A DNA stretch of 32,000 nucleotides from Thermofilum adornatum (GTDB lineage Archaea; Thermoproteota; Thermoprotei; Thermofilales; Thermofilaceae): NCBI RefSeq assembly GCF_000446015.1, contig NC_022093.1, forward strand, positions 1,718,260 to 1,750,259. The letters are read 5' to 3'. The notes beneath the pieces are model-generated. The model was given only the letters and a program-made list of their open reading frames with translations. It searched no databases and was not told the DNA's origin. This document shows positions 4,626 through 25,126 of the stretch, piece by piece (within the stretch, counting starts at the first letter, position 1; each line of letters begins with the position of its first letter). A program made the translations under genes and the position numbers.

Positions 4626-5394
4626 CTAAATACGCCTCGATAACCCTCTTATCTGACACAACTTCGTCCGGCTTCCCCTCTGCCAATAGCTGGCCGTTGT
4701 GGAGGACATAGACGTAGTCCACGTACTGCATCATCACCTCTATTCTATGCTCCACTATTAGGAATGTGTAGCCGTTAGCATTAAGCTCCCTCACAAGCCT
4801 AAACAGGTTGTGTGCCGCTGTGGCCTCTACGCCGGCTGCCGGCTCGTCTAGCAAGAATACTCTTGCAGGCGTCATAAGGCCCCTAATGGTTTCTATGAGC
4901 TTCATGTGTGCCCCGCTCAGCTCTGAAACCCTTACGTTTGCATATTCTAGGAGGCCAAACCTATTTAGTAGTTCGATGGCCTTTTTTGCAAGCGCTTTCT
5001 CTTCTTCCTGCCAAGTCTCAGGGTTGATAGCTTTCAATGGATGCTCGCCTTTCTGGCCGAAGGGGGTCAACAGGAGGTTTTCGAGGACTGTTAGGGACTT
5101 GAACAAGCGTGGTATCTGGAAGGTCCTCACTATGCCCTTTGCAAACACCTCGTTGGGGTTTAGGCCGTCTATCCTCTCGCTGTTGCCTCCATTGTGGTAC
5201 CAGACCTCCCCCTTGTCAGGCACATAGAAGCCAGAGACCACGTTGAAGAGTGTCGTCTTTCCACTGCCGTTGGGGCCTATAAGGCCGACAACGCCTCTCT
5301 CTGGCACGCTTATACTTACATCTTGCAAAGCTACGATCCCTCCAAAAGTCTTAGTTACATTGTCTACCTCTAGGATGTTAGCCACTTTTCTCAC
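4609..5394 (-). CDS. livG: HAAT-family ABC transporter ATP-binding protein, LivG-type
   Basis: Walker A GPNGSGKTT, the LivG-typical IVRTFQIPRLFKSLTVLENL and Walker B VFLLDEPAAGV. It overlaps the permease gene by 17 nt. Confidence 0.9.
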   Translation of the reverse strand: MRKVANILEVDNVTKTFGGIVALQDVSISVPERGVVGLIGPNGSGKTTLFNVVSGFYVPDKGEVWYHNGGNSERIDGLNPNEVFAKGIVRTFQIPRLFKSLTVLENLLLTPFGQKGEHPLKAINPETWQEEEKALAKKAIELLNRFGLLEYANVRVSELSGAHMKLIETIRGLMTPARVFLLDEPAAGVEATAAHNLFRLVRELNANGYTFLIVEHRIEVMMQYVDYVYVLHNGQLLAEGKPDEVVSDKRVIEAYLGDANA

Positions 5395-6424
5395 CCTTTA
5401 CCTCTTCTTCATATACCTTCCATGCAGGTGTCTCTATCTTTCCCTCCTTCAGGATTCCCTGAGGACGGAAAAGGAGGACAACAACGATCAAGAAGCCTAC
5501 CAGGAATCCTCTGATATAGTCGGGTGAGATAATTGTTATGCCGAGCTGTGGCGTCACAAAGGCGAGGAGCCTGTCAAAGAGAGTAAAGATAGCGGCACCT
5601 AGAAGCGAACCTTCAAGGTTGCCCATACCTCCAAGAATTATCATTGCCCAAACATTGAATGTAACTGCAGGAACAAATATGTCTGGATTAATTGAGCTAT
5701 AGTAAAAGGCTAAGAGTACACCGGCCATACCAGCGAAACCCGACCCAATAAAGAGAACCATTGCCTTAAGCCTTGGTACGTGTTTGCCTAGGCACAGTGC
5801 AGCTATCTCGTCATCTCTTACTGCCCTTAGTGTTCGCCCGAGTGGCGAATTGTAGAGACGGCGAAATACAAAGTAAGTAAGTGCTAGAAGAGCCAATACG
5901 ATAAATAGGTAGAGCAATGCCCTCAGCGTTGGATTAGGTACCCAGGCAAATGGGTGCGGAATAGACATTATGCCCTTGCTTCCTCCTAGTGGCTCATAGT
6001 GTTGGACAAAGATCCTGAAAAGCTCGCCTGTACTAAGTAATGTGAAGCCTACAAATGCCGGTCCAACCCTTATAATTGGATAGCTAAGGAGATACCCTAC
6101 TATGCCGGCTACCAGAAAAGCTAAAACCAATGATGCTACCAGTAGTCCTATATCGAGAATAGGATTCTTCGTAGCTAGTTCGCCTAGAAGCACAATTCCC
6201 TCGATATCAAAGGGTGAAACTTTAGATGTATCTACACCGCTAAGCAAAAGGAAAAGGTAAACCGTCAAAGCTGCACCGATATAGGCTCCGAGGCCATAGA
6301 AAAACACCTTTCCAAAGTTTGTCACACCGCTAGTGCCAGACTCGAAGTTCAGGCTTACAGCGAGTATACCATATATCCCTAAGAACGTAAGCCAGCTTAT
6401 CAGGAAACCAACCACATCTATCAT
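5378..6424 (-). CDS. livM: HAAT-family ABC transporter permease, LivM-type
   Basis: 348 aa polytopic protein. Motifs: FGKVFFYGLGAYIGA and SPLGRTLRAVRDDEIAALCLG (the LivM-type ...AIReNe.aA..lG motif). Confidence 0.85.
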   Translation of the reverse strand: MIDVVGFLISWLTFLGIYGILAVSLNFESGTSGVTNFGKVFFYGLGAYIGAALTVYLFLLLSGVDTSKVSPFDIEGIVLLGELATKNPILDIGLLVASLVLAFLVAGIVGYLLSYPIIRVGPAFVGFTLLSTGELFRIFVQHYEPLGGSKGIMSIPHPFAWVPNPTLRALLYLFIVLALLALTYFVFRRLYNSPLGRTLRAVRDDEIAALCLGKHVPRLKAMVLFIGSGFAGMAGVLLAFYYSSINPDIFVPAVTFNVWAMIILGGMGNLEGSLLGAAIFTLFDRLLAFVTPQLGITIISPDYIRGFLVGFLIVVVLLFRPQGILKEGKIETPAWKVYEEEVKGEKSG

Positions 6425-6430
6425 CTGGCT

Positions 6431-7396
6431 TCACCCCCTTTTTCTCCTATACCTGAATGGTAAACCACCAGCTGCGCCAAGAGGTGGAAAAGCAATCAAG
6501 ATAACAATCAATGTTACAAATGTCAAGAAGGTTCTAAAGCTAGTTGGGACACCGAACCAAGCATTCAGGAAACTAATGCCGACATTCTCTATGAGGGCAA
6601 TCACGAATGCTCCAATGCCTGTCTTAACCAATGAGACCAGCCCCCCGATAAATGCAACGGTGAAGACTTGTAGAATCATAGCGTCGCCGGTTGTAGGCGT
6701 GACTGTTCCCGAGAAACTTGTCCAAATTGCTCCACCTATCCCGACTATGCCGCCCGTTATCAGCCATGTAACAGTTATTACCTTGTTCCTGGGTATCCCA
6801 GAAATCTCGGCCAAGACCGGGTTGTCTGCAACGGCGCGCATCGCTTTTCCCAGCGAGGTTTTATTCAGGAAAAAGTAGAGAAATACAACCATGCCGACAG
6901 CTGCCACAAGAACCGCAATGAAGCCGCCAGACAACCTTAGGCCCCCTATCGTGATTTCTGGTACGTCATTATAGAGTATTCTCCCATACGAGACAAAGTT
7001 GACCCCGCTAAGTGCGTGTGCTATGTCAGCCAACATGTAGAGGACATAGTTGTACATTATCCAGAGACCCATCGACGCTATCATTATGAGAGACATTGAA
7101 GCTCCTCTATCACTAAGGGGTTTAAAGACAAAAATGTGACTAGCAACAGCAAGCGTCCCAGAAACGAGGAACGCCAGTAGGCACGATAAGAGAAGGCTCT
7201 GGTTGCCAAGCAAGCCATTAAGAAATACGGCTACATAGGCTCCGTAGGTTATAAAATTGGCGTGGGCAAAGTTCATGACCCGCGTCGTTCGATAGCTAAG
7301 GGTAAGGGGTACGGCAAAGAGTAGATAGAAGAAAGAGTAAAAAAGAAAATTTATTATTGTGTTTTGGTCAAGTGGTAGCATATATTGTTGCTTCAC
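6431..7396 (-). CDS. livH: HAAT-family ABC transporter permease, LivH-type
   Basis: 321 aa polytopic protein. Motifs: VMNFAHANFITYGAYVAVFL and SLGKAMRAVADNPVLAEISGI. It starts 2 nt after the binding-protein stop. Confidence 0.85.
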   Translation of the reverse strand: MKQQYMLPLDQNTIINFLFYSFFYLLFAVPLTLSYRTTRVMNFAHANFITYGAYVAVFLNGLLGNQSLLLSCLLAFLVSGTLAVASHIFVFKPLSDRGASMSLIMIASMGLWIMYNYVLYMLADIAHALSGVNFVSYGRILYNDVPEITIGGLRLSGGFIAVLVAAVGMVVFLYFFLNKTSLGKAMRAVADNPVLAEISGIPRNKVITVTWLITGGIVGIGGAIWTSFSGTVTPTTGDAMILQVFTVAFIGGLVSLVKTGIGAFVIALIENVGISFLNAWFGVPTSFRTFLTFVTLIVILIAFPPLGAAGGLPFRYRRKRG

Positions 7397-7397
7397 C

Positions 7398-8690
7398 CTA
7401 TGGGTATGGTTTCTCGGTGAATATTATTTGTCCATTCTGGTAGAAGCCGACGTCTTTGAAGTCGTAGCCAGCGCCAGTCTTTACTATGGCCCATACGCCG
7501 TAGTCCTGGTTTGCCTTGTCACCAGCGCTGTCAAAGATCGTCCAGCCACTTACACCGTAGTAGTGCTTTGCAACTTCCACCAGGGCGTTCCTAATTGCAT
7601 TGCCGTCGTTGCTTCCAGCCCTAAGGATTGCCCAGCCCGCAACCTGGACTGCGTCGTACAAGTTGTCACAGAAGACTGTGGCATCTACCCCATACTTCTC
7701 CTTAAGTTTCTGTTTGAACTCTTCATAGAGAGGATTCGCTACAAAAAGCGGACGTGTTCCCAGAAGCTTAACCTTTGCAGCAAAAGCTCCAACGGCAGGT
7801 GTCTTAAGCTCTGCTGCTCCATGCGGGCCCTCCGATAGGAACCATCTAACACTAGAGAGAATAGACGACTCTGCAGCGTGGGAAAGTATGTTTCCGCCGT
7901 CCGTGTCGAATGAGATTAATACAACAGCATCGGCTTGCTCAGTCTGAACCTTGCTCGCAAGGCTGTTAACGTCCGCCGCATAGTCAGAAAGGTCTGGCTG
8001 ATAAGGCATGTCGACAACTTTCCCGCCAAATTGCGTAAATGCCTTTGAAAAGAAGTCGGCAAACGCGTTTCCATACTCGTCGTTCCTGTGGAAGACTATT
8101 ACTTTTCTTGCACCCTCCTGGAAAGCAAGGGTTGCGAGGACTTTTGCTTGGCCAGCGTCAGAACCGACGGTCCTGAATATAAAATCGTTGGGTATCGCGA
8201 GTGTTGGCGCGGTCGAGGATGGAGAAATTATTACTATCTGGTTGCTGTCTGCAAAGCTTTTTACTGCTTTGACCTGAGAGCTTGCAGCTGGCCCGATGAC
8301 CACCTTTATTCCTTGCTGTGCAAGCGTCTGGACATTTGATACGGCCTTGTCAACAGATGTGCCATCATCCAATATAACAGCCTTAAACTCGACATTGAAG
8401 CCGTAGGCCTGCACCTCCTTGTTCAAGTCCTCTATAGCCATCTGTGCAACTTTTTCCCAGATTTTACCTATAGATGAAAGAGAGCCAGTGAGTGGGAGAG
8501 TGAAGCCTATCTGTATAACTTTTTTAGATGCCGAGGGTTGTCCTCCAGCGGGTTGCTGGGGCTGTCCTTGCTGGGGACCAGCGAAGAATCCCGAGGCGGC
8601 GAAGCCAATGGCCATTCCAACTATAAGTGTAACAATAACTGCGGCGATGAACTGTACGCTAAACTTAGATTTTCCTGCTTGTTGTGTCAT
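7398..8690 (-). CDS. Type-I periplasmic-binding-protein fold substrate-binding protein (Leu/Ile/Val-binding family), N-terminally membrane anchored
   Basis: IQIGFTLPLTGSLSSIGKIWEKVAQMAIEDLN is typical of LivJ/K-family binding proteins. An N-terminal TM helix (FIAAVIVTLIVGMAIGFAASGFF) is followed by a P/Q-rich linker (GPQQGQPQQPAGGQP). I chose the ATG at 8690, which is preceded by GGGGGAG and a TATA-like CATATATAG. The ORF extension to 8810 looks non-coding. Confidence 0.85.
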   Translation of the reverse strand: MTQQAGKSKFSVQFIAAVIVTLIVGMAIGFAASGFFAGPQQGQPQQPAGGQPSASKKVIQIGFTLPLTGSLSSIGKIWEKVAQMAIEDLNKEVQAYGFNVEFKAVILDDGTSVDKAVSNVQTLAQQGIKVVIGPAASSQVKAVKSFADSNQIVIISPSSTAPTLAIPNDFIFRTVGSDAGQAKVLATLAFQEGARKVIVFHRNDEYGNAFADFFSKAFTQFGGKVVDMPYQPDLSDYAADVNSLASKVQTEQADAVVLISFDTDGGNILSHAAESSILSSVRWFLSEGPHGAAELKTPAVGAFAAKVKLLGTRPLFVANPLYEEFKQKLKEKYGVDATVFCDNLYDAVQVAGWAILRAGSNDGNAIRNALVEVAKHYYGVSGWTIFDSAGDKANQDYGVWAIVKTGAGYDFKDVGFYQNGQIIFTEKPYP

Positions 8691-8910
8691 GTGTTCTCCC
8701 CCTTGGGGGATGTAGTACAGCGATATGTAGGCTATATATGTCTTTGCCAAATATCTTCGCAGAAAATTGCAAAACAAAGGTAAGAATTTTGAAAAAAGTG
8801 TCAAGAACATCTTTGAATATGTGTAAAACTTACCATTAGAATATGCATATCAGTAATGCTTATAAAAGAGCCCCTAAAATTGCCGATAAATATATTTAGC
8901 GAAACTTTAT

Positions 8911-9873
8911 TTAATACTCTCTTGATTTGGTCAATACGTTTAGAGGTTTTTCTCCTCTAAGGTATCTTGCTATGTTTTCTGCAGCGAACCTGAGGCATTT
9001 CTCCCTGGATTTCTTTGTCCATCCTGCCTTGTGGGGCGTAGCTATAACATTTGGGAGCCTGTGGACACCTATACTTGAGGGGTAGCCTTGGCTTGGCGGA
9101 TAGGTCCACCATACGTCTATGCCTGCCCCGGCTATCCAGCCTTGTGTCAGGGCTTTGTATAATGCGTGTTCGTCTATAACGGGGCCCCGGCCTATGTTTA
9201 TGATATAGGCTGTTTTCTTCATTGACTTTAGTTCTTCTTCTCCTATGAGGCCTCTCGTCTCTCGTGTCAGCGGGAGAGCTATTACTGCATAGTCTGCCTG
9301 GGAGAGAGCCTCTTTGAGCTTGTCTTGTCCGTAGCATTCGTCGCAGTACTCGTCTCTTTCTGGGTTCTTCTTGACAGCTACTACTTTCATGTTGAATGCC
9401 TTTGCTATCCTCGCTATCTCTCTGCCGATATTGCCGTATCCAACGATGGTTAGTGTTGAGCCTTCAAGGTCTAGTAAGAAGTTTTCCTCTGTGTAGCTTC
9501 TCCACTTGCCGTTCTTTACCTCGTAATCCTGCTCTACAATTTTCTTGGCAAGTGAAAGCATGAGTGCGAAGGCGTGCTCTGCTACTGCCCTGGCGTTACA
9601 GCCCTTGGCCGTGGCAACCATGACGTTTCTATCGAACAGGGCCTCTAGGTCTAAGTTGTCTGCGCCAGCCGCGGGAACCTGGACAAACTTAAGTTTTCCC
9701 GCTCTCTTGATTGCCTCCCTTGGCAAGGTAACAGCCATAGCTATGGACGAGTCTTCTAGGCCAGAAAAGTCGGCACCGCTCCAGTAGAGAATCTCGATTT
9801 TTCCGCCTAGAACGTCCTCAATTATCCTCTTTTCCCACTCGGCAAGCCTCAAATAAACAAACAACCTCTCCAC
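8911..9873 (-). CDS. D-isomer-specific 2-hydroxyacid dehydrogenase (glyoxylate/hydroxypyruvate reductase or PGDH-like), NAD(P)-binding
   Basis: Rossmann motif VGYGNIGREIARIAKAFNMKV, then INIGRGPVIDEHAL, and a catalytic His region VIATPHKAG. GTG start. Confidence 0.9.
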   Translation of the reverse strand: MERLFVYLRLAEWEKRIIEDVLGGKIEILYWSGADFSGLEDSSIAMAVTLPREAIKRAGKLKFVQVPAAGADNLDLEALFDRNVMVATAKGCNARAVAEHAFALMLSLAKKIVEQDYEVKNGKWRSYTEENFLLDLEGSTLTIVGYGNIGREIARIAKAFNMKVVAVKKNPERDEYCDECYGQDKLKEALSQADYAVIALPLTRETRGLIGEEELKSMKKTAYIINIGRGPVIDEHALYKALTQGWIAGAGIDVWWTYPPSQGYPSSIGVHRLPNVIATPHKAGWTKKSREKCLRFAAENIARYLRGEKPLNVLTKSREY

Positions 9874-9936: not shown

Positions 9937-10074
9937 ATGAAATTTATATGTCTGTCTGCACATTTATATATTGATCCGGTAGGATCGCGCCTCGACTGCC
10001 CCGTATGTGGGCTGGATGAAAAGGCGCCCGGGAAAACACAAAAAAAGAAATTTATTTTTTGGGCTTTCTCCTAA
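9937..10074 (+). CDS. Possible small Cys/His-containing protein (45 aa)
   Basis: The ATG is preceded by GAAAGGGG and by an AT-rich box about 30 nt upstream. The protein MKFICLSAHLYIDPVGSRLDCPVCG has C-x3-H-x11-C-x2-C spacing. It converges on the 3' end of 10052..11581 and overlaps it by 23 nt. There is no further support. Confidence 0.25.
   Translation: MKFICLSAHLYIDPVGSRLDCPVCGLDEKAPGKTQKKKFIFWAFS
10040..10046 (-). terminator. T7 tract 6 nt after the stop of the second binding-protein gene (end of the long operon)
   Basis: The minus strand reads TAA-ATTTC-TTTTTTT-GTGTTTTCC. Confidence 0.4.
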
Positions 10075-11581
10075 GCAGTAAAACTGTAGCTAACACTATC
10101 ACTAATACAATTATAGCCAGGACAATGTACAGAGTAAAGTCTTGTGCAGGCTGTTGTGGCTGAGCGGGTTTCGTGGGCTGTGTTGGCTGTTGTTGTGCTG
10201 GTTGTTGTGGCGGATACAGGTTGACCTCTACTGGGGGTGTAACGCTTTTAACTGTGTCTATGTATTGTGGAGCAAACATTCCAATTTTGAGGAGGGGCTT
10301 GTAGAGGTCTGGTAGATCCTGCTCGGTATAGTATTTGGCAAGAGAGGTTGTATCCCACACTATTTGTGCAATATACATGTCCTGTACTGTTCTGTGGTCT
10401 TCTTTTCTTATCTTTATGTCTCCCTTCACAGATGTAAATGTGAGGCCTTCAAGCGCGTTGATTAGTTTTTCAGAGTCTGTTGAGCCGCCGGTCTTCTTTA
10501 ATGCTAGTCCAAGCGCATGGCCAGCCACGAATCCCTCGCCGACAAAAAGGTCTGGCAAGGGGAAGGCTATGAGGACTGAGCCCATCGTTGGAAGTGCTTT
10601 TTTCTTGTAGAGTTCAACATACTTTGAGACAAGCCAGTCGTTGACTGGGTTATTCTGTGGTAGGTTCCAAGCATACTTCATCATTCCCTTGTAGTTGGGC
10701 AGGTATAGGCCCATTTTTAATAGGTTCAGGGTTGCTAGGTCTGGTATGCCTGAGGTGACTTTCATCTTTTGGTAAACTCCTGAAGCGTTTATCTGTTGGT
10801 AGAGTGTTAGAGCTGTTGCTCCACTCCATACGGGAATGAATACCTCTGCCTTTGAGGCCAGGAGAGACTGGATGTAGGGCGTAAAGTCAGTGGTTGTTAC
10901 GGGGGCATATATTGCGGCGACAACGCTTCCTCCTTTCTGTTGAATGATTGTTGACCAGGCATCGACAGTAGAGCGTCCCCAGGAGTTGCTCGGTGCTAGG
11001 AATGCAACTGTTTTGCCGAGGGTGGTGGCAAATGTTCCACCTGCAATTGCGTCGTGCCAAGTTGTACTTGAAATCTGGAAAACGTACCTGTTTAGGTAGG
11101 TCTTGGTTATCTCGTGGTCAGCGGCAGGGACAACCAAGAATACGACCTTGTATTTTTGGGCTATCTGTGTGAGGGCGATAGCTGACGGGCTGTCTGAACA
11201 GCCTACGAGTATCTCGGCTCCCTTGTTTTGTATCAAGTCCTCTGCTGCTTTTGTAGCTGTGGCTGGGTCTGGGATTTGCTGGCCGGCTGGAACATTGGTT
11301 GCCGCTATGATGTGTATTGTTTTGCCTTGCCAGTTAAGTTTCCATTCTAGGTTTGGCGTAACTGTCTCGAAGCTCGGTATCTCTAGCGCGTACATGAGTC
11401 CAAGAATGAAGCCGTTAATTGACATGTCGCCATAGTAGCTTAGTGCACCTGTCCTGTCGGTAACGATGCCTATAACGATTTCATTGGGGTTCTGGGCCTT
11501 GACGTTTATTGGTACAAAGGCTAGTGCTATTAGTGCTATCAAGAGGAGGGAGAGACTTTTAGCTCGTTCTTTTGTTGTCAT
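10052..11581 (-). CDS. Type-I PBP-fold substrate-binding protein of the second HAAT-type ABC system, C-terminally membrane anchored
   Basis: It has an N-terminal signal peptide (SLSLLLIALIALAFVPINVKAQNP) and a PBP core (IVIGIVTDRTGALSYYGDMSINGF). The C-terminus carries a P/Q-rich linker (PPQQPAQQQPTQPTKPAQPQQPAQ), a TM helix and a basic tail (RRKPKK). Confidence 0.8.
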   Translation of the reverse strand: MTTKERAKSLSLLLIALIALAFVPINVKAQNPNEIVIGIVTDRTGALSYYGDMSINGFILGLMYALEIPSFETVTPNLEWKLNWQGKTIHIIAATNVPAGQQIPDPATATKAAEDLIQNKGAEILVGCSDSPSAIALTQIAQKYKVVFLVVPAADHEITKTYLNRYVFQISSTTWHDAIAGGTFATTLGKTVAFLAPSNSWGRSTVDAWSTIIQQKGGSVVAAIYAPVTTTDFTPYIQSLLASKAEVFIPVWSGATALTLYQQINASGVYQKMKVTSGIPDLATLNLLKMGLYLPNYKGMMKYAWNLPQNNPVNDWLVSKYVELYKKKALPTMGSVLIAFPLPDLFVGEGFVAGHALGLALKKTGGSTDSEKLINALEGLTFTSVKGDIKIRKEDHRTVQDMYIAQIVWDTTSLAKYYTEQDLPDLYKPLLKIGMFAPQYIDTVKSVTPPVEVNLYPPQQPAQQQPTQPTKPAQPQQPAQDFTLYIVLAIIVLVIVLATVLLLRRKPKK

Positions 11582-11651: not shown

Positions 11652-12668
11652 TTATATCCAGCGGAAGATTGCGCTTGCCATGACGAAGCCTACTCCAGAA
11701 GTGATGAACTGTATGTAGTCTCCCTTCTTAATCTTGCCCTGTGTTAGAGTATCGTGTAGAGCCATGAATACGCAGGCAGATCCAGTGTATCCATATTTCT
11801 CCATGATGGTTGGGGCCTTCTCGATTGGCTGTCCAAGTAGCCTCATCAGCTGGTGGATCATCTCTCTGTTTACCTGTGTGACGAAGTAGTAGCTTATGTC
11901 GTTGGCTGTTAAATTTGCCTTTTTCTGTACCTCTTGTGCGAGTCCTGGCCAGTGGCGAAGGTTTATGTCGGGTGGATACCTTTTAAGGTACCTCAGCTTG
12001 TGCCATCCCTCCTTTACGACGTTCTCGTTTACTGGTCTTGCACCCCCTATGTATATGCCCCAGTAGTCTGTATAACTACCATCCGCAATTATTTTTCCAG
12101 TAATGTAGCCAGGTTCACTTGATGGGCCAAGAATGACGGCTCCAGCTCCGTCAGAGAAAATGGAGGCAGTCACGTCTTGTGGGTCAATAAATTTGGTCAT
12201 CGTGTAAGGTGAAACTACCAAGACATAGTTGACGTCTTCGTTGAGCATGATGTTCTGTGCCGCAAGCATGAGGGCTATTGTGTTGTCTGCACAGGCCGCG
12301 TTTATGTCGAAGCCTCCCGTTTTTAGTTTTGCGCCTAGCTTCTGGTGAACTGCACAAACTGTTGGTGGGGTCTGGAAGTCTGGGGTATCTGTTGCGAATA
12401 TGATAAGGTCGATATCGTCTATAGTGAGGTTGGCGTTTTGAAGAGCCATTCTAGCGGCTTCTGCGGCTAGATCCGAGGGGGCCTGGTCTGGCGCAGAGAC
12501 GTATCGGTGTTTGATGCCTATGCGGTTTTCTAGTGCATTTCTCCATGCATCGGGGAGCTTGAGACCAAAGAACTTTTCATAGTCATCGTTAGTTACTAGT
12601 GTTTTTCCAAGGGCTATGCCCGTGCTCACTATCCTGGCATATTTTTTTATTTCAGGCTTCGTAGCCAT
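11652..12668 (-). CDS. Beta-ketoacyl synthase III (FabH)-like thiolase-fold protein with a non-canonical active site
   Basis: It is collinear with FabH throughout. The nucleophile motif FDINAACADN is conserved. The positions matching the FabH HQAN and GNTSAAS motifs read TQVN and GYTGSAC. The ATG at 12668 is the second codon of the ORF-track model. Confidence 0.85.
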   Translation of the reverse strand: MATKPEIKKYARIVSTGIALGKTLVTNDDYEKFFGLKLPDAWRNALENRIGIKHRYVSAPDQAPSDLAAEAARMALQNANLTIDDIDLIIFATDTPDFQTPPTVCAVHQKLGAKLKTGGFDINAACADNTIALMLAAQNIMLNEDVNYVLVVSPYTMTKFIDPQDVTASIFSDGAGAVILGPSSEPGYITGKIIADGSYTDYWGIYIGGARPVNENVVKEGWHKLRYLKRYPPDINLRHWPGLAQEVQKKANLTANDISYYFVTQVNREMIHQLMRLLGQPIEKAPTIMEKYGYTGSACVFMALHDTLTQGKIKKGDYIQFITSGVGFVMASAIFRWI

Positions 12669-12688
12669 CAAAATACTCTGGGAAAAAT

Positions 12689-12724: not shown

Positions 12725-13954
12725 CTAAAAGATGCTTTCGATCTTTCTCTTGAGCTTCCAGCCTTTAAGCAACCATGTACCGTATATACCGTAAGGTAAT
12801 GCCAGGACAACTATTATGTAGAGGAGTCCGAGAATAAAGCTGGGGAAGAGTTGCAGTTGTTGGAGTGACAGGAAGCCTAGTGATATGAGTGCTGGAGTTA
12901 TCGTTGAAAGGTAGTCTCTAAGGAAGCCAGCAAGGATACCGCCAATAGCTGGTCCAACGAATGTGCCGAGACCACCCAGTATAGCACCAGTCATGGCAAT
13001 GAAGGTCTTATCGGTTGCGAAGACGTCTGGCTGGATTGTAGGTATGCAGGCGACGTACACGCTTCCGGCTACCCCTGCAAAGACGCCTGAAATAAAGAAA
13101 GCTATTAACTGGTGGAGAAAAACGTTGTAGCCTATAACAGATGCCCTTACCGGATTCTCCCTTATTGCTATAAATGTGCTTCCCAGAGGGGATGTGATGA
13201 TTCTCTTAATCAACAGATATGATATGTAGAGGCTAAGGAGAGAGACTAGGTACACGTTAAGAGGATATACAAATCGCAGGATTCTTACATAAGGAAGACC
13301 TGAACCTACTTCATGGAGGAATGTTGCCGAGGAGCTAAAGATTACGTACCCACTATAACCTAAGAAGATAAAGAGCAATAAGACAATCAGTGTTTTGAGA
13401 ACTTTCTGGCGTTTCCGCTTTGTGCTAATGATGTCTATCATCCCGGTCACAAGTGATAGAGCAAGAAATATTGTGAAGAGGGCGAGGTAGAGGTACAGCC
13501 CTTCAAGTGAAGCCATCTCAGGTATCGTACCTACCGTCACAGCAACAGTGGTTTGGGCAGAGTACTCAATAGTAGCTCTAATGGCTTCCGAAATAGCAAG
13601 CGTTAAGATACCATAGTACAGTCCCCTAACACGGTAGCCGGGAAGACCCATGCCGACATAAACAGCTCCCGAAATAAGTGCGGCGGGAATAAGAGATAGA
13701 AGGAACGGGACACCCTGCTTGAGAAGCACCGCCGTAATAAAGGCAGCAACACCGAATGGAACTGCGTGCCCGAAGCTTGGGATTCCCGCGAAACCCAAAA
13801 CTATGTTGTAGCTTAGTGCAAGTAGAGCCCATACAAATGTCAGGGGAATGCCTGTAGCCAGTGACCTGTCTAGCCATGGAATGGCAAGGAGTATTGTTAA
13901 GGACAAGTATCCAAGAAACCTATTAGGCAACAAGTAGTTCCTTAGTTTCTCCAT
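12725..13954 (-). CDS. livM: HAAT-family ABC transporter permease, LivM-type (enlarged, 409 aa)
   Basis: Polytopic protein. Motifs: YNIVLGFAGIPSFGHAVPFGVAAF and SPLGSTFIAIRENPVRASVIGYN. Confidence 0.85.
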   Translation of the reverse strand: MEKLRNYLLPNRFLGYLSLTILLAIPWLDRSLATGIPLTFVWALLALSYNIVLGFAGIPSFGHAVPFGVAAFITAVLLKQGVPFLLSLIPAALISGAVYVGMGLPGYRVRGLYYGILTLAISEAIRATIEYSAQTTVAVTVGTIPEMASLEGLYLYLALFTIFLALSLVTGMIDIISTKRKRQKVLKTLIVLLLFIFLGYSGYVIFSSSATFLHEVGSGLPYVRILRFVYPLNVYLVSLLSLYISYLLIKRIITSPLGSTFIAIRENPVRASVIGYNVFLHQLIAFFISGVFAGVAGSVYVACIPTIQPDVFATDKTFIAMTGAILGGLGTFVGPAIGGILAGFLRDYLSTITPALISLGFLSLQQLQLFPSFILGLLYIIVVLALPYGIYGTWLLKGWKLKRKIESIF

Positions 13955-13958
13955 TTTC

Positions 13959-14831
13959 TCACCTCTTGAATAATCCTTCTGGTTTAACCACTAGGACAAC
14001 TATCATGACTATGAGATCTATCGCAAAGCCCAGTTGGGGTATAAAGTAGGCTACAAGCCTGTCGACAAATCCTATCAGTAGACTCGCATAGAAGGCTCCC
14101 GAATAACTTTTCATGCCTCCTACCACGGGGATAGCGAATGCTAGAAGTGAAAAGTGGACAGGGAGCTCTATGGTTGCATGCGTCAGTGGAGCAACTAGTG
14201 CGCCACCCAGTAGTGCCAGGGCGACGCCAAATGTAAATGCAGACGTGAAGAGCATCGAGATATCTACACCGAAGACTGTAGCGAGCTCTCGGTTCTCTGT
14301 CCCCGCCCTAAGCTTTATACCAATCATGGTTTTTGAAAGAAGTGTACTCATGGTGCCGAATAGGACAAATCCAATCGCTATAAGAACAAACTTATAGATC
14401 CTTATCCTGACATCTGCTAGCTGTATATATCCTGACAACAAGAAGTTTTGAGTCTCCGGAAATACGAGCCCTGTTGGCCATATTAGTTGCATAAAGGTAT
14501 ACAATAGAGTCATTAGTCCCATGGTAAGTAGTAATTGTGCTAATGGATTCCCGTATACCGGCCGTATTATTGCTCTCTCGGTTAGAAGACCAAGGACTAT
14601 CCCTATAAGAAAAGTTAACAATAGGCTCAACAGGAAGTTATTCGTCATGTAATAAAACGTCACAAAGAGATATGCTCCTAGTCCAAAAAAGGCGCCCTGT
14701 GCTAGGTTAAAGACATCCATTAAGCCAAAAATAATCACAAGTCCTATGGCTGCAAGGTAGATCATTGATGAATAAGTCAACCCGTCTATAACTGCGCTTA
14801 GAATCAATTCAGGTGAAACCATATCCACCAC
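13959..14831 (-). CDS. livH: HAAT-family ABC transporter permease, LivH-type
   Basis: Motifs: AAIGLVIIFGLMDVFNLAQGAFFGLGAYL and MIGIKLRAGTENRELATVFGVD. Confidence 0.85.
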   Translation of the reverse strand: MVDMVSPELILSAVIDGLTYSSMIYLAAIGLVIIFGLMDVFNLAQGAFFGLGAYLFVTFYYMTNNFLLSLLLTFLIGIVLGLLTERAIIRPVYGNPLAQLLLTMGLMTLLYTFMQLIWPTGLVFPETQNFLLSGYIQLADVRIRIYKFVLIAIGFVLFGTMSTLLSKTMIGIKLRAGTENRELATVFGVDISMLFTSAFTFGVALALLGGALVAPLTHATIELPVHFSLLAFAIPVVGGMKSYSGAFYASLLIGFVDRLVAYFIPQLGFAIDLIVMIVVLVVKPEGLFKR

Positions 14832-15551
14832 CTATAAGCTTACACCCAGGATTCTCCTTATTACATGATTGTTTTCTTCTATTTTTTCCGAGGGAAAACC
14901 TGTCACCACAACACCTTTATCCATCAGGTAAATGTAATCTGTTATTTCGCGGGCGTAAGCAAAGTTCTGTTCAATCAATAGTATTGTCTTCTTATTTTCA
15001 AGCATGTAGTGCCTCAGCTGCCTGTAGAAGTTTTTAACATAAGCTGGGCTTAGACCCTCAGATGGCTCATCTAGTATGAGAAGATCATGCTCCCTTACCA
15101 GTCCACATGCAAGTGCAAGCATTCTTTGCTGACCGCCGCTAAGTTCTCCTGCTAGGAGGCCAGAGAACCGTTTAAGCTCTGGGAAAAGATTCATTACCAT
15201 TTCAAGCTTGTCGTCGAATTTTTCCTTTGGGCCATTATAGGCTAGCTTAAGGTTCTCAATGACGGTAAGGTTTGCAAATACATTTTTCTCTGCTGGGACA
15301 AAACTTATTCCCCTCTTGACTATGCTATGCGTTGGGAAATTAGTGATGTTCTCTCCTTTGAAAAACACTTCTCCCCTAGCTGCCTTATATATTCCCATTA
15401 TTGTTTTTAGAGTTGTTGTTTTTCCCACGCCATTTCTACCTAGAATGGCCGTGAGCTTGTATTCTTCCGCTTCGAAGTTTACTCCTTGAAGTATATGGAA
15501 GCCGCCTATATATGCATGAAGATCCTTTACTTTCAGAATTGGAGACGCCAC
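14832..15551 (-). CDS. livF: HAAT-family ABC transporter ATP-binding protein, LivF-type
   Basis: Walker A GRNGVGKTT, GISFVPAEKNVFANLTVIENL, signature LSGGQQRMLALACGL and Walker B LLILDEPSEGL. The ORF extends to 15593. A GTG at 15551, one nt after the upstream stop, is the more economical start. Confidence 0.85.
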   Translation of the reverse strand: MASPILKVKDLHAYIGGFHILQGVNFEAEEYKLTAILGRNGVGKTTTLKTIMGIYKAARGEVFFKGENITNFPTHSIVKRGISFVPAEKNVFANLTVIENLKLAYNGPKEKFDDKLEMVMNLFPELKRFSGLLAGELSGGQQRMLALACGLVREHDLLILDEPSEGLSPAYVKNFYRQLRHYMLENKKTILLIEQNFAYAREITDYIYLMDKGVVVTGFPSEKIEENNHVIRRILGVSL

Positions 15552-15552
15552 A

Positions 15553-16305
15553 TCATTCACCCAGGTAGATTTTCTGAACCTCCCTATTCTCAACTATCTC
15601 TTTGGGAGACCCTTCCGCGAGAATACTTCCCTGATTCATTACGCTGACTTTGTCTGCTACTTCGAGAACAACATCTATTTTGTGCTCGATCACTACAACT
15701 GTTTTCTTCATTTCGTCTCTCAGCTTTTTAATGAGACGTACAATTGGTGCTACCTCCTCTAGAGATACGCCGGCCGTGGGCTCATCTAATGCTATGAGCT
15801 TTGGGTTTCCAGCAAGGGCAATAGCGATTTCTAGTTTCCGTTTGTCGCCTGGGGTGAGGCTACTTGCCAAAATGTTTGTCTTGCCGTAGAGGCCAGTTAT
15901 GGAGGCAATCCGCATGGCTTCCCAGACAACATCTTTGTAATGGCTTGTTGGATGAATGAAGTCCCATCTCACGTTTTTCCATTTTGCTTGGACAGCAAGC
16001 CTTATGTTTTCGAGAACAGTAAGGTTTGGGAAAATCGAATATATTTGGAAAGACCTTGTTAGACCCAGGGAGCTAATGTAGTGAGGGGGTTTACCAGTTA
16101 TATCTCTGTCCTCAAAATACACTTTACCACTTGTAGGTTTGAGGACTCCAGTAATCAAGTTAAATAGCGTTGTTTTCCCAGCACCGTTGGGACCTATTAT
16201 AGCATGAACCGTGCCCTGCGCCACCTTCAGGTTAACATTGCTGACAGCTACGAGTCCACCGAAGCTCTTTGTGAGATTTTCTGTGCGTAGAATTATGCCT
16301 GACAT
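15553..16305 (-). CDS. livG: HAAT-family ABC transporter ATP-binding protein, LivG-type
   Basis: Walker A GPNGAGKTT, LTRSFQIYSIFPNLTVLENI and Walker B LIALDEPTAGV. Confidence 0.9.
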   Translation of the reverse strand: MSGIILRTENLTKSFGGLVAVSNVNLKVAQGTVHAIIGPNGAGKTTLFNLITGVLKPTSGKVYFEDRDITGKPPHYISSLGLTRSFQIYSIFPNLTVLENIRLAVQAKWKNVRWDFIHPTSHYKDVVWEAMRIASITGLYGKTNILASSLTPGDKRKLEIAIALAGNPKLIALDEPTAGVSLEEVAPIVRLIKKLRDEMKKTVVVIEHKIDVVLEVADKVSVMNQGSILAEGSPKEIVENREVQKIYLGE

Positions 16306-16306
16306 G

Positions 16307-17086
16307 TTAGATGCCCCTGAAAAATTCTAGCAATAATTGGTTGTATTCTTCGGGTCTTTCCCTGTGGGGCATGTGTCCTACGCCTTTCATTATGTGCGCC
16401 TTTGAGGTAGGCACCATGGCGTGCATTTCTTCGACGACCTCTGGTGGGGATATGTAGTCTAGCTCTCCAGAAATGAAGAGAACAGGGTTCCTAAGTGATC
16501 TGATTATGTCTCTGTAGCTTTTTTCTGTCGCAGCTTCAGCGCTCTGTATGTAGACACGTTTATCAGTTCGTGAGATTATCTCATAGATTTCTCGTTTTAA
16601 TTCGGTAGATGCGTATGGCGACACAGCGAACTCAGCTACTTGGCTGGCTATTTCATGCATAGACATGTTTTCAAGAACTTCTGTCATTGCTGGTGGGTAT
16701 TCAGGTGCAATGGCTTCGAGGACAATCTTCTCAAATCTTTGTAGATACAAGCGGTAAAGCTCTAGCAGGACTAGGCCGCCCATTGAGTAGCCTACCATGA
16801 GCGCTTTCTCTATCTTTTCGGCTTCGAGGACGCTTTCTACGTCTCTAGCAAAATCCTCCATTGATATCCTTTTTGGGGGAATCTGGCTTTCGCCGTGCCC
16901 GCGAAGGTCTAGTGCTAATACCCTGTACCCCCTAGCTGGGAAGAACTCTAACTGGGGTTTCCATGTAAGATGGCTTTCGCCCAAGCCGTGTACGAAGATT
17001 ATTGGTGTTCCATTTCCTTCAGCAACATAGTGTATCTTTATACCGTCTTTTGATTTTGCATACCTGTGCTCTAATCCCTGCGACAT
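16307..17086 (-). CDS. Alpha/beta-fold hydrolase (esterase / C-C hydrolase-like)
   Basis: HG oxyanion motif IFVHGLGES, nucleophile elbow GYSMGG and a C-terminal His region GVGHMPHRERPEE. Confidence 0.85.
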   Translation of the reverse strand: MSQGLEHRYAKSKDGIKIHYVAEGNGTPIIFVHGLGESHLTWKPQLEFFPARGYRVLALDLRGHGESQIPPKRISMEDFARDVESVLEAEKIEKALMVGYSMGGLVLLELYRLYLQRFEKIVLEAIAPEYPPAMTEVLENMSMHEIASQVAEFAVSPYASTELKREIYEIISRTDKRVYIQSAEAATEKSYRDIIRSLRNPVLFISGELDYISPPEVVEEMHAMVPTSKAHIMKGVGHMPHRERPEEYNQLLLEFFRGI

Positions 17087-17088
17087 TT

Positions 17089-17886
17089 TTATTTCACCTC
17101 TCCCTTAAGAAAATTCGACACCAGTACATTAATTTCGCCCGGTTTTTCCCAAATAGAGACATGCCCACTTTCAACTTCAGCATATTTTCCATTGGGAAGC
17201 TCCTCAACTATCAACTTGGAGTATCTAGGCGGGAAGAATCTGTCATGAGTGCTGGCAACAACAAGAGTTGGCATTGTTAGTTTGGAGAGCTTTCCCCTCA
17301 GATCGAGCCTAAGAAAAGCTTTAATCATCTCTTCGAATGCTACCATGTCTACAAGCTCGAAGTTAGGTGCCAAAGAAGAAATAAAGGAGAAACTGTTATT
17401 GATGAACTCGTCTGAGAATATGTCCGGAATCATTACTTGCCACAGGAATCTACCTGACTTAAGCCGTGCCGCCAAAATCCACCTGTCGGCACGCAGTCTC
17501 AAGGCCTTGTCTACGGTGTGCGACGAATTTAGAATTACGAGTTTTTCGACTTGCTCGGAGAAGGCTAGCGCAGTAGCCAATGCTACTTTTCCGCCATAAG
17601 AGATGCCTGCAAGCGTAAAAGTGTTAATGCCCAAGTAATCTAACAGTTCCTTCAAGTCAGAAACATGTCTATCAATACTATAACCTGTCCTCGGCTTATC
17701 ACTTTGTCCCTGACCACGCATATCATGTAGAACTACCTTATAGCCTAGGTTCCTCAGATATTCTGCTTGAAGCCTCCATCCTACAGTATTCATCGTTATG
17801 CCATTGAGTAGCACTACCGTCTTTTCCCCTTCACCTTCGACCTCGTAATAGATCTTTATACCGTCCGTTGTAGTGAAATACGCCAT
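17089..17886 (-). CDS. Alpha/beta-fold hydrolase, second paralogous-type copy
   Basis: VVLLNGITMN, nucleophile elbow GISYGG and a C-terminal His region ESGHVSIWEKP. It sits 2 nt from the downstream hydrolase gene. Confidence 0.85.
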   Translation of the reverse strand: MAYFTTTDGIKIYYEVEGEGEKTVVLLNGITMNTVGWRLQAEYLRNLGYKVVLHDMRGQGQSDKPRTGYSIDRHVSDLKELLDYLGINTFTLAGISYGGKVALATALAFSEQVEKLVILNSSHTVDKALRLRADRWILAARLKSGRFLWQVMIPDIFSDEFINNSFSFISSLAPNFELVDMVAFEEMIKAFLRLDLRGKLSKLTMPTLVVASTHDRFFPPRYSKLIVEELPNGKYAEVESGHVSIWEKPGEINVLVSNFLKGEVK

Positions 17887-17891
17887 GGATC

Positions 17892-19463
17892 CTACACCTC
17901 TAACTTGTCTTCAGGTTTTCCATAAAGGATTTTAAGAGGCTGGCGAGCCACCTTCCCAGTCTCCGTGTAGACAAGTTGGGGAACAACTTCTACATACTTT
18001 GGTATTTTGTATTTCGCGAGCTTGTCTTTCAAGAAATCTATGACTTCTTCTTTCGTTATCTTTTCTCCCTCCTTAAGTACAATCAATGCCTTTGGAACCT
18101 CCCCCCACTTGGGGTCAGGGACTCCTATAACCACTGCATCCTTAATCTTTGGATGCATAATCAAAAGCCTCTCAATTTCTTCTGGATACACGCTCTCTTC
18201 ACCACTCCTAATGATGTTCTTAATTCTCCCAGCTATCCAGAAATAGCCTTCCTCATCTACCCTAGCAACGTCTCCCGTAGCCAGCCATCCATCCTTTATA
18301 ATAGACTTCATCTCTTCCTCGTTTTTCAGGTATCCTGAAAACACGCTTGGACCCCTTAGGTACAGCTCGCCCTCAACACCTCTGGGAGCCTCACTTCCAT
18401 CTGGAAGAACAACCCTGGCCTCTATCAATAGGTTCGGTTTCCCAATCGACCCCATTTTCCTCTTAGCGTCCCATGGATCGAGAGCAAAAATACCTGGACC
18501 CATCTCGGTCATCCCAAAACCTTGTTTCTGGACAACACCCTTCTCAAATATTTTCTCGATGATGTCTGGCGTTAACGCTCCCCCGCCGCTTGTAAACCAC
18601 CTAACGGATGAAAAGTCTGCGTCCTTGAAACGGGGCGAAGCAAGCAACATCCTAAGTTGCGTCGGAACCAGGAAGAGAAATGTTGGTCTCTCCTCTTCTA
18701 CGAGGTCAATAAACCTATCAACATTCCATCTTCGCATTAGAATACTTGTCCCTCCAAACATTAATAGAGGGATTAGATATGTGAAGGCACCAATGTGGAA
18801 GAGAGGTAACGTGTTGATTGTGACGTCGCCAGGTATAACCAAGTCCCTAACAGTGTTCAAGGCGTTCCAGAGAATCATCCTGTGACTTACTATTGTAAAT
18901 TTTGGCTTTCCAGTTGTTCCACCAGTTTGTAGTATTAGGGCGGGGTCTTCGAGGCAACACGCCGTCGAGACATCATTGGAAGAGTATTTCTCATAATTAA
19001 ACTCGTTTGGACAGTCATAGCACACTTTCTTCGTCTCTATGTTAGAGACGGTTTCTGAAAATTCTTTTTCATATAGGAGAACTTTTGGATTGACTTTATC
19101 AACAAACTCTTGAATTTCACGTGAAGTGTACCTCGTGTTTATAGGAGCTAGGACACAGCCAATCTTGAAACATGCAAGAAGCGTGGCAACAAACTCTATG
19201 CGGCTCCACGAAAGAATAGCTACATAATCTCCCTTGCTTATTCCGAAATTTTCCCGAAGAAAATTAGCAATCTTGTTGGACATCTCGTTTAGCTGTGCAA
19301 AGGACACCGTACGTAAGGGTATCGTTAGGTCGTCCTTGAGTGCTATCCAATTACCACTTATATCTGCTCTACGAGCTATCCAGTTGTTGACCCATTTTCC
19401 ACACGTATAGATTCTCTCCAGAGACATATAATGCATGTTAATAGGTGAAATCGTGTTATACAT
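17892..19463 (-). CDS. AMP-dependent acyl-CoA synthetase/ligase (ANL superfamily)
   Basis: Core motifs: LQTGGTTGKPK, GFGMTE, GWLATGDVARVDEEGYFWIAGRIKNIIRSGEESVYPEEIE and a C-terminal TETGKV. Alternative ATG starts at 19436 and 19427 would leave the palindrome at 19467..19485 further upstream. Confidence 0.9.
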   Translation of the reverse strand: MYNTISPINMHYMSLERIYTCGKWVNNWIARRADISGNWIALKDDLTIPLRTVSFAQLNEMSNKIANFLRENFGISKGDYVAILSWSRIEFVATLLACFKIGCVLAPINTRYTSREIQEFVDKVNPKVLLYEKEFSETVSNIETKKVCYDCPNEFNYEKYSSNDVSTACCLEDPALILQTGGTTGKPKFTIVSHRMILWNALNTVRDLVIPGDVTINTLPLFHIGAFTYLIPLLMFGGTSILMRRWNVDRFIDLVEEERPTFLFLVPTQLRMLLASPRFKDADFSSVRWFTSGGGALTPDIIEKIFEKGVVQKQGFGMTEMGPGIFALDPWDAKRKMGSIGKPNLLIEARVVLPDGSEAPRGVEGELYLRGPSVFSGYLKNEEEMKSIIKDGWLATGDVARVDEEGYFWIAGRIKNIIRSGEESVYPEEIERLLIMHPKIKDAVVIGVPDPKWGEVPKALIVLKEGEKITKEEVIDFLKDKLAKYKIPKYVEVVPQLVYTETGKVARQPLKILYGKPEDKLEV

Positions 19464-25111: not shown

Positions 25112-25126
25112 AAAAATTTTATTTTT
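25110..25126. terminator. Bidirectional A7/T4-A-T5 tract between convergent genes
   Basis: The plus strand reads TAAAAAAATTTTATTTTT. This gives T-tracts after the plus-strand stop (25109-25111) and a T7 after the minus-strand ACD alpha stop (25119-25121). Confidence 0.45.

Follow-up and report, generated by a model that had tools for sequence, protein, structure and literature searches.

What reaction could a FabH-like protein carry out once both the histidine and the asparagine of the FabH active site have been replaced, and why should its gene lie inside the operon of a solute importer? These questions are raised by a gene of the archaeon Thermofilum adornatum on the minus strand of a 32,000-nucleotide stretch of contig NC_022093.1 (positions 1,718,260 to 1,750,259; hereafter the window, in whose own numbering positions are given). 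FabH-type enzymes, the ketoacyl-ACP synthases III (KAS III; ACP, acyl carrier protein), are textbook Cys-His-Asn catalysts, and their known exceptions CerJ, ChlB3, DpsC and PqsBC each revealed new chemistry. A sequence-only reading of the window had recognized FabH homology in this gene, with the nucleophile Cys127 intact and with Thr265 and Tyr295 at the positions of the His and the Asn. We found that the gene belongs to a broad clade that has replaced both residues, the His by Thr or Asn and the Asn by Tyr, and has strictly kept these replacements across Thermofilaceae, Bathyarchaeia, Thaumarchaeota, several Asgard lineages, Acidobacteriota, Chloroflexota, Myxococcota, Caldisericota and Thermotogae. 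We refer to this clade as the C-T/N-Y family.

Several comparisons agree on the homology to FabH. The protein exceeds the Pfam cutoffs of both ACP_syn_III (57.5 bits) and ACP_syn_III_C (88.2 bits), and a phmmer search of PDB sequences retrieved the FabH structures 4dfe, 4ryb, 2ebd and 3il9 with E-values of ∼1e-36 to 1e-41, the top matches being 4dfe and 4ryb (∼7e-41). An AlphaFold2 model built with the family alignment as input reached a pLDDT (predicted local distance difference test) of 95.7 and a pTM (predicted template modeling score) of 0.93. When this model was compared with the PDB by Foldseek, its nearest structures were ordinary FabH, BioZ and PqsD, with template modeling scores that are mostly 0.86–0.93 when normalized to the target (0.87–0.93 for the FabH structures) and 0.82–0.88 when normalized to the query. 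The predicted structure is thus a confident FabH fold. Membership in any curated family is another matter, as all NCBIfam FabH models stay under their cutoffs, including the best of them (PRK09352, 200 versus 249 bits) and TIGR00747 (186 versus 292 bits), with the remaining ones missing theirs by more. The models for DarB and DpgA score far below those for FabH. The best model for 3-hydroxy-3-methylglutaryl-CoA (HMG-CoA) synthase, whose catalytic set is Glu-Cys-His, reaches 66 bits against a cutoff of 244, and the family conserves no His. Among models for thiolase, whose catalytic set is Cys-His-Cys, Thiolase_N falls just short (25.1 versus 26.4 bits), Thiolase_C gives no match and the NCBIfam thiolase models remain below 25 bits.

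Residue numbers used here follow the 339-residue open reading frame (ORF) at 11652–12671 as read from a TTG codon. The codon directly after this TTG is an ATG (12666–12668), which is likely the true start since the closest homologue, P0001 (338 residues), aligns to residues 2–339. In a MAFFT alignment C127, T265 and Y295 map onto C112, H244 and N274 of Escherichia coli FabH, so the protein has the fold and the nucleophilic Cys of a canonical FabH (EC 2.3.1.180) and lacks its His244/Asn274 dyad. The phmmer alignments agree, placing "yyfvTqvn" over "wlvpHqan" and "ekyGYtgsa" over "drhGNtsaa" within a C-terminal stretch of ∼90 residues that is free of gaps, as the sequence-only reading had described for the last ∼80. 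Thr265 and Tyr295 also keep the 30-residue spacing of the FabH His and Asn.

In order to follow these positions through the family we used a homologue set of 120 clusters at 90% identity; the closest shares 89% of its residues with the query and the most distant 41%. The triad is C-T-Y in 108 clusters, C-N-Y in the other 12 and C-H-N in none, so that position 265 is Thr in 90% of the family and Asn in 10%, and Cys127 is kept in all 121 aligned sequences. Because all 120 of these best homologues, down to 41% identity, are without C-H-N, the Thr and Tyr substitutions are not sequencing errors. We also looked through the family alignments for a shifted alignment, or a substitute conserved His or Asn, that would restore the canonical triad, and none was found. 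In a search of 1.84 billion representative proteins the top matches above ∼165 bits are nearly all C-T/N-Y and canonical C-H-N FabH starts at ∼160 bits and below, which means that the two groups are cleanly split by score.

The conservation extends well beyond the triad. Invariant in a 58-sequence alignment are C127, Y295, N237, P233, W241, Y156, M158, G297, S298, S325 and G326, and no column of this alignment holds a histidine conserved at ≥90%. Compared with E. coli FabH the family has T (90%) or N for H244, Y (100%) for N274, N237 (100%) for A216, P (99%) for V212, S (98%) for F304, G (100%) for S276 and S or T for F87, and it carries a six-residue insertion ahead of residue 213. At the position of Cys300 the C-T-Y clade keeps Cys, whereas the C-N-Y clade has Ser. 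The query itself shows the full subfamily signature (Cys127, Tyr295, Asn237, Pro233, Trp241, Thr/Asn265, Gly297 and Ser325) together with the motif K-[YWF]-G-Y-[TAN]-G-S. The window gene is thus not a decayed copy but a member of a conserved family, and the prediction of a catalytically constrained, His-free FabH-fold subfamily is firmly supported. We found no curated model and no literature description of the family or its operon, and no solved structure from the subfamily was apparent among the PDB matches from phmmer and Foldseek. Over-long homologues (P0135, P0138, P0206 and P0228) were inspected for fusions and appear truncated or chimeric. One of these, the metagenomic P0138 (412 residues), begins with 255 residues from the N-terminus of a C-T-Y KAS and continues as the C-terminal portion of an alpha/beta hydrolase. 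This is more likely an artefact of deletion or assembly than a genuine fusion, and again shows that KAS and hydrolase genes are adjacent.

A review of FabH describes acyl transfer in the E. coli enzyme as relying on Cys112 along with two backbone amides, its own and that of Gly306, with His244 and Asn274 serving condensation. The C-T/N-Y family retains the acyl-transfer set, the Cys and the oxyanion loop, and does not retain the condensation pair; the Gly-Gly acyl-transfer loop of E. coli FabH is present as G326-x327. The family shares with FabH (PDB 1HN9/1EBL from E. coli and 4DFE from Burkholderia xenovorans) the two-domain thiolase fold and its best sequence match (∼1e-41), along with the nucleophilic Cys, the FD..AAC motif, the Gln and Asn past the His position and the Gly-rich oxyanion loop. 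Unlike FabH, it occurs in ACP-less archaea and in an operon with importer, ligase and hydrolase genes, not with fab genes. The ACP-docking Arg249 of E. coli FabH aligns with Glu270, in a column that varies across the family, and ACP has been reported absent from nearly all Archaea (archaeal fatty acid synthase paper). By sequence, the family is very unlikely to be a malonyl-ACP-dependent FabH, and the database name "ketoacyl-ACP synthase III" that its members bear is probably wrong, at least for archaea without ACP. Where E. coli FabH has Phe87, the family's small residue has a parallel in Mycobacterium tuberculosis FabH, whose Thr87 has been linked to a preference for long-chain acyl-CoA (mtFabH paper). 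Besides this Ser or Thr the two would have an acyl-CoA primer in common. M. tuberculosis FabH, unlike the C-T/N-Y family, keeps Cys-His-Asn and condenses with malonyl-ACP.

The gene context would fit the uptake and activation of an acid. The FabH-like gene belongs to a nine-gene minus-strand operon (19463 to 10052), in which neighboring genes are spaced by −41 to 70 nucleotides, in the order ligase, two hydrolases, two ATP-binding cassette (ABC) ATPases, two permeases, FabH-like gene, binding protein. Its place, with a LivM-type permease encoded on one side and the binding protein on the other, had struck the sequence-only reading as unusual. That position is real, and it recurs in two Thermofilaceae contigs from metagenome-assembled genomes that are syntenic with the window over the whole cluster; it is, however, not an oddity but a conserved feature of a widespread module. 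Scans of the window for tRNA genes and Rfam families gave nothing that helped to place it. The best solved relatives of the ligase are named fatty-acyl-CoA synthase and feruloyl-CoA synthetase (∼1e-91 to 1e-90). Those of the binding protein are Rhodopseudomonas-type members of the Peripla_BP_6 family, which gave no ligand, as the nearest entries are unannotated structural-genomics proteins on which we found no literature and the next group matches only at ∼1e-17. The similarities of ligase and binding protein would together point only to carboxylic acids, fatty or aromatic.

We called ORFs in 89 related loci and in the window, clustered the products by all-against-all BLASTP with single linkage and removed antisense shadow ORFs. 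The non-redundant set comprises 84 loci from at least 10 phyla. In 52 of these 84 loci the next gene downstream of the FabH-like gene, in the same orientation, encodes a ligase; an alpha/beta hydrolase gene lies directly upstream in 43 and a short-chain dehydrogenase/reductase (SDR) gene adjoins it in 16. For the wider context we counted neighbors within 8 kb of the gene in the 47 loci whose flanking sequence reaches 5 kb or more in each direction. Here we observed a ligase in 40, a hydrolase in 35, TetR in 24, an SDR in 16 and MaoC or crotonase in 15, while an importer of some type was present in 33 (Liv-type ABC in 15, TonB-dependent receptor in 16, major facilitator superfamily (MFS) transporter in 12). 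The hydrolases fall into two sets of orthologues, the first encoded upstream of the KAS gene and the second downstream of the ligase gene, and the product of 17089–17886 in the window falls in the second. In the window ligase, hydrolases and importer are encoded on one strand, and the same set is found across phyla. The tie between this FabH-like subfamily and an acyl-CoA ligase, two hydrolases and an importer is firmly supported.

The order of the genes varies with lineage. In Acidobacteriota it is TetR, TonB receptor, hydrolase, KAS, ligase, hydrolase, MaoC, MFS, and in Asgard archaea and Bathyarchaeia it is ABC genes, hydrolase, KAS, ligase, hydrolase, binding protein. Caldisericota have hydrolase, KAS, FabG, binding protein, ABC genes, TetR, CoA-transferase and thiolase. 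Recurrent neighbors in Myxococcota include a predicted lipoprotein and a large protein without a Pfam match, predicted to be an outer-membrane protein. As unrelated uptake systems recur beside the same set of enzymes, the module probably processes an exogenous compound. The Thermofilaceae loci L006 and L007 also keep the HTH_10 regulator of the window.

Where an SDR adjoins the gene it offers a clue to the intermediate. The two adjacent SDRs that we tested, from Caldisericum and Terriglobales, pass the NCBI FabG cutoffs (319 and 306–308 versus 296–298 bits). A ketosynthase-like gene beside a FabG-type 3-oxoacyl reductase gene suggests a 3-oxoacyl intermediate. Clusters of the C-N-Y clade (L022, L033, L044, L064 and L013, with the KAS at about 10001–10990 in some) hold a double TetR, thiolase, DUF35, KAS, three SDRs, crotonase, hydrolase and ABC importer, occur in Thermotogae, Bipolaricaulota and Chloroflexota and usually have no adjacent ligase. 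A CoA-based fatty acid synthase has been described in Sulfolobus, in which a thiolase/DUF35 pair works with a FabG-type reductase and a MaoC dehydratase, and archaeal thiolase/DUF35 pairs are reported to form complexes, for example with HMG-CoA synthase. The window shares with these systems a CoA-based setting and the combination of thiolase and FabG-type reductase, MaoC is a neighbor of the family elsewhere, and the C-N-Y gene recalls the complexes in directly following a thiolase-DUF35 pair. The window protein itself is FabH-like rather than HMG-CoA-synthase-like.

We favor, at a probability of roughly 40%, an active FabH-fold enzyme that would depend on CoA thioesters rather than ACP and would make or cleave 3-oxoacyl-CoA without decarboxylation. 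In this scheme the importer would bring in an acid, possibly released from an ester by the alpha/beta hydrolases, and the AMP-dependent ligase would convert it to acyl-CoA. The FabH-like enzyme would then load the acyl group onto Cys127 by means of the retained backbone oxyanion hole, and a non-decarboxylative Claisen or retro-Claisen (thiolase-like) step would form or cleave a 3-oxoacyl-CoA that is shared with the FabG-type reductase, MaoC hydratase and thiolase encoded nearby. By position, the Tyr295 hydroxyl, Thr/Asn265 and the invariant Asn237 could replace the His and Asn as the polar site that stabilizes the enolate. We infer acyl-enzyme formation, CoA specificity, the C-C chemistry and the direction of the reaction; the substrates would probably be medium- or long-chain, or hydroxy-, acyl groups.

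Several observations weigh against this proposal. A thiolase-type reaction needs a general base or acid, and none was identified unless Tyr295 or Cys300 takes the role. A second thiolase-like enzyme looks redundant, as many loci, including the window, encode an ordinary thiolase. About two thirds of the loci have no SDR within reach, and the tightest partners, the two hydrolases and the ligase, are about equally compatible with acyl transfer. The Thorarchaeota operons also hold a paralogous KAS-ligase pair whose KAS has a Cys-His-Asp triad of the CerJ/ChlB3 type. Lastly, the roles suggested for Tyr295, Thr265 and Asn237 derive from their aligned positions.

Some of these points lead to the strongest competitor, a KAS III-fold acyltransferase in which Cys127 would be loaded from acyl-CoA made by the ligase and would hand its acyl group on to an acceptor with a hydroxyl, amine or thiol, or in reverse an imported ester would be turned into a CoA thioester, with Tyr295 backed by Cys300 as a stand-in for a His-Asp pair. 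Acyltransferases of this type pair a His with an Asp and have Cys or Ser as nucleophile; CerJ and ChlB3 have a Cys-His-Asp triad whose Cys forms an acyl-enzyme (ChlB3 paper). Tyr295 and Cys300, five residues apart, fall exactly at their His and Asp positions, so that CerJ, ChlB3 and DpsC resemble the family in having a KAS III fold with a key polar residue at the Asn274 position and a partner five residues on. The His244 position is likewise not His in the CerJ/ChlB3 relatives that we found. The match remains one of position, as the family has Tyr-Cys (or Tyr-Ser) where these acyltransferases have His-Asp, and the similarity is remote: ChlB3 matches at 2e-7, far weaker than FabH at 1e-41, and CerJ is not among the listed phmmer matches. 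In addition CerJ, ChlB3 and DpsC belong to antibiotic clusters of actinomycetes, where their acceptors are ACP-bound or sugars, a setting that the family does not share.

The context speaks for acyl transfer in three respects. The most constant neighbors are ester-handling alpha/beta hydrolases and the ligase. Furthermore, Thorarchaeota loci and one Anaerolineae locus encode another KAS III-like protein, which shares ∼21% identity with that of the window, beside a second AMP-ligase gene. Where FabH has Asn274 this KAS has His, with Asp five residues further on (motif GH[MV]GQ[NS]D), which in sequence is the Cys-His-Asp arrangement of CerJ/ChlB3, so that two non-canonical FabH-like types share one operon. 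Finally, in about six Acidobacteriota loci the KAS-ligase pair is found among genes for a class-III-like polyhydroxyalkanoate (PHA) synthase (sometimes two), PhaR and MaoC (one or two). Loci of this type (L009, L016, L021, L035, L038, L074 and L088) also have a small ORF that is possibly phasin-like, and secreted class-2 lipases are encoded near some of them; the PHA synthase, PhaR, MaoC and lipase neighbors suggest a link to hydroxyalkanoate or lipid turnover. Against acyl transfer, Tyr serves poorly as a general base unless a cation lies close by, and no such cation was identified; no acceptor is evident, and the adjacency of FabG-type reductases in 16 loci is left unexplained. Taken together, we regard the acyltransferase as possible but doubtful.

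That the protein is unlikely to be a decarboxylating condensing enzyme had been stated in the sequence-only reading. This is reasonable in view of the FabH scores below cutoff, the unconserved Arg249 column, the lack of a conserved His and the absence of ACP from nearly all Archaea, although a Tyr hydroxyl together with a Thr hydroxyl or an Asn amide could still stabilize an enolate. An enzyme of this kind would take malonyl-CoA as extender, use Tyr295 and Thr/Asn265, the two hydrogen-bond donors remaining at the dyad positions, as a substitute oxyanion hole and elongate exogenous acyl-CoA primers independently of ACP. FabH is indeed the closest relative overall, the FabG-type reductase and MaoC dehydratase neighbors resemble an elongation cycle and the literature offers the CoA-based archaeal fatty acid synthase as a precedent. 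This is countered by the loss of both His and Asn in every member, by the lack of an enoyl reductase among the recurrent neighbor gene clusters and by the linkage to importer and hydrolases, which suggests assimilation. Replacing His244 or Asn274 of E. coli FabH with Ala abolishes decarboxylation and not transacylation, and anaerobic hosts such as Thermofilaceae are not known to make malonyl-CoA. We consider this explanation unlikely.

Less probable still is an OleA-like first enzyme of an Ole/beta-lactone pathway, in which it would condense two acyl-CoAs head to head and an SDR, an AMP-dependent beta-lactone synthetase and a decarboxylase of the alpha/beta-hydrolase type would act afterwards. 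OleABCD consists of a thiolase-fold enzyme, an alpha/beta hydrolase, an AMP-binding enzyme and an SDR; these four protein classes are the ones that cluster here, and the family shares with OleA a thiolase-fold, presumably non-decarboxylating enzyme in their midst. The likeness ends at the level of subfamilies. OleA keeps Cys-His-Asn plus a Glu base and the family has neither His nor Asn; OleA structures match at ∼1e-12 versus 1e-41 for FabH. The hydrolases are PcaD- or esterase-like, with OleB being dehalogenase-like, and the SDRs are FabG-type, from which the OleD type differs. About two thirds of the loci have no SDR nearby, and the association with importers and TetR would go unexplained. 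We rejected OleABCD as the main explanation on the identity of the partner and OleA subfamilies and on the importer linkage.

A non-catalytic acyl-binding or scaffolding subunit, which the sequence-only reading had left open and which is a role attributed to PqsB, would fit the lost canonical dyad and the C-N-Y gene that comes after a thiolase-DUF35 pair (genes whose products are known to assemble into complexes), but is disfavored to the point of being very improbable because Cys127, Tyr295 and Asn237, as well as the oxyanion loop, are invariant across archaea and bacteria at ∼40% overall identity, and most loci lack a thiolase partner.

Extending the preferred non-decarboxylative reading to the whole family is more tentative. 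The C-T/N-Y proteins may be an unrecognised KAS III catalytic class with a His-free Cys/Tyr (plus Thr/Asn and Asn237) site that performs CoA-dependent non-decarboxylative chemistry on imported acyl compounds, either as a FabH-shaped enzyme that condenses or cleaves "primers" in the ACP-independent fatty-acid metabolism of TACK and Asgard archaea and many bacteria, or as an ATP-saving direct converter of (hydroxy)acyl esters to CoA thioesters. Once worked out, the reaction would extend the active-site solutions of the thiolase superfamily by a new one and would give a function to hundreds of genes now named "ketoacyl-ACP synthase III". It would also bear on the ACP-free uptake and processing of fatty-acid-like compounds in archaea, including the relatives of eukaryotes, and cultured carriers (Pyrinomonas methylaliphatogenes, Caldisericum, myxobacteria) make the question testable.

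The closest relatives by source come from Thermofilaceae (85% identity), Njordarchaeia (65%) and Thaumarchaeota (52%). At 42–48% identity they come from Caldisericum, Nitrospiraceae, Chloroflexi, Thermotogaceae, Terriglobales, Promethearchaeota, Hermodarchaeota and Thorarchaeota. A scan of one genome per GTDB species confirmed at least 592 relatives, a rough figure given that one of the two search patterns used is not family-specific. The best 80 of these are from Bathyarchaeia and Thorarchaeota among archaea and from Caldisericota, Chloroflexota, Acidobacteriota, Thermotogae, Bipolaricaulota, Gemmatimonadota and Myxococcota among bacteria, and include the cultured Pyrinomonas methylaliphatogenes K22, Chondromyces apiculatus DSM 436 and Pyxidicoccus.

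Table 1. Positions of the FabH-like gene, its key codons and associated genes (window numbering unless a locus is named).
Feature	Position	Strand	Remarks
FabH-like (KAS III fold) gene, C-T/N-Y subfamily	11652–12668	−	338 residues from ATG; Pfam, AlphaFold2, Foldseek
Cys127 codon, TGT	12291–12293	−	Predicted acyl-accepting nucleophile; E. coli FabH Cys112
Thr265 codon, ACA	11877–11879	−	At E. coli FabH His244 position
Tyr295 codon, TAC	11787–11789	−	At E. coli FabH Asn274 position; invariant Tyr in family
Asn237 codon	11961–11963	−	Family-specific invariant; E. coli FabH has Ala216
Cys300 codon	11772–11774	−	Five residues past Tyr295; Asp of the CerJ/ChlB3 His-Asp pair falls here
AMP-dependent acyl-CoA ligase	17892–19463	−	First gene of operon; Pfam AMP-binding; NCBIfam fatty-acyl-CoA-ligase-like
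Alpha/beta hydrolase	17089–17886	−	Orthologous group found after ligase gene in other phyla
Alpha/beta hydrolase	16307–17086	−	Nucleophile motif GYSMG; Pfam Abhydrolase_1; PcaD-like below cutoff
Two ABC ATPases	14832–15593, 15553–16305	−	Pfam ABC_tran, BCA_ABC_TP_C
Two Liv/HAAT-type ABC permeases	12725–13954, 13959–14831	−	Pfam BPD_transp_2
Substrate-binding protein	10052–11581	−	Peripla_BP_6; signal peptide and C-terminal membrane anchor; 70 nucleotides downstream of FabH-like gene
HTH_10 regulator, divergent	19658–20392	+	Pfam HTH_10; holds the place of TetR in bacterial loci
FabG-type short-chain reductase	20413–21387	−	Pfam adh_short; NCBIfam PRK12826.1-2 passed (246 versus 222 bits)
SCP-x/archaeal-type thiolase	21384–22559	−	Pfam Thiolase_C_1, Thiolase_N; NCBIfam PRK06064, 409 versus 420 bits
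Second KAS III-like gene, locus L041	130–1152	−	
Second KAS III-like gene, locus L032	2129–3154	−	
Second KAS III-like gene, locus L071	281–1324	−	
Second KAS III-like gene, locus L039	4286–5293	+	

Beyond the regulator the reading frame of the thiolase overlaps the start of the reductase gene. The reductase has an N-terminal extension of ∼78 residues that is conserved in Thermofilaceae (L006 1284–2252) and beta-rich in appearance. We considered a DUF35-like oligonucleotide/oligosaccharide-binding (OB) domain, and the extension gave no significant Pfam match. The window has no DUF35 gene, and since its thiolase is without such a companion the extension might be a docking domain. Adjoining the cluster is a gene for a secreted YiiX/Peptidase_C92 protein (permuted papain-like; 22629–23243, minus strand), which recurs beside an AMP-ligase gene near the Njordarchaeia homologue (L002 2910–3596).

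Farther along, the plus-strand gene at 23342–25111 encodes a 589-residue protein that is membrane-anchored at its N-terminus, has a long C-terminal half that is polytopic and includes an alpha/beta-hydrolase domain outside the cytoplasm. The hydrolase domain matches dienelactone-hydrolase- and PETase-like proteins, and the product may be a surface esterase that feeds the importer. Two subunit genes of an ADP-forming acyl-CoA synthetase (ATP-grasp_5; CoA-binding/ligase-CoA) follow with a gene for a multi-4Fe-4S protein (25119–27276, minus strand; 27804–29183, plus strand), and this synthetase could turn acyl-CoA products of the cluster into ATP. On the other side of the operon a second complete Liv-type ABC importer is encoded at 3912–8810 (minus strand), whose binding protein is more like genuine binders of branched-chain amino acids, and a D-2-hydroxyacid dehydrogenase gene (8911–9873, minus strand) lies between this importer and the FabH-like operon.

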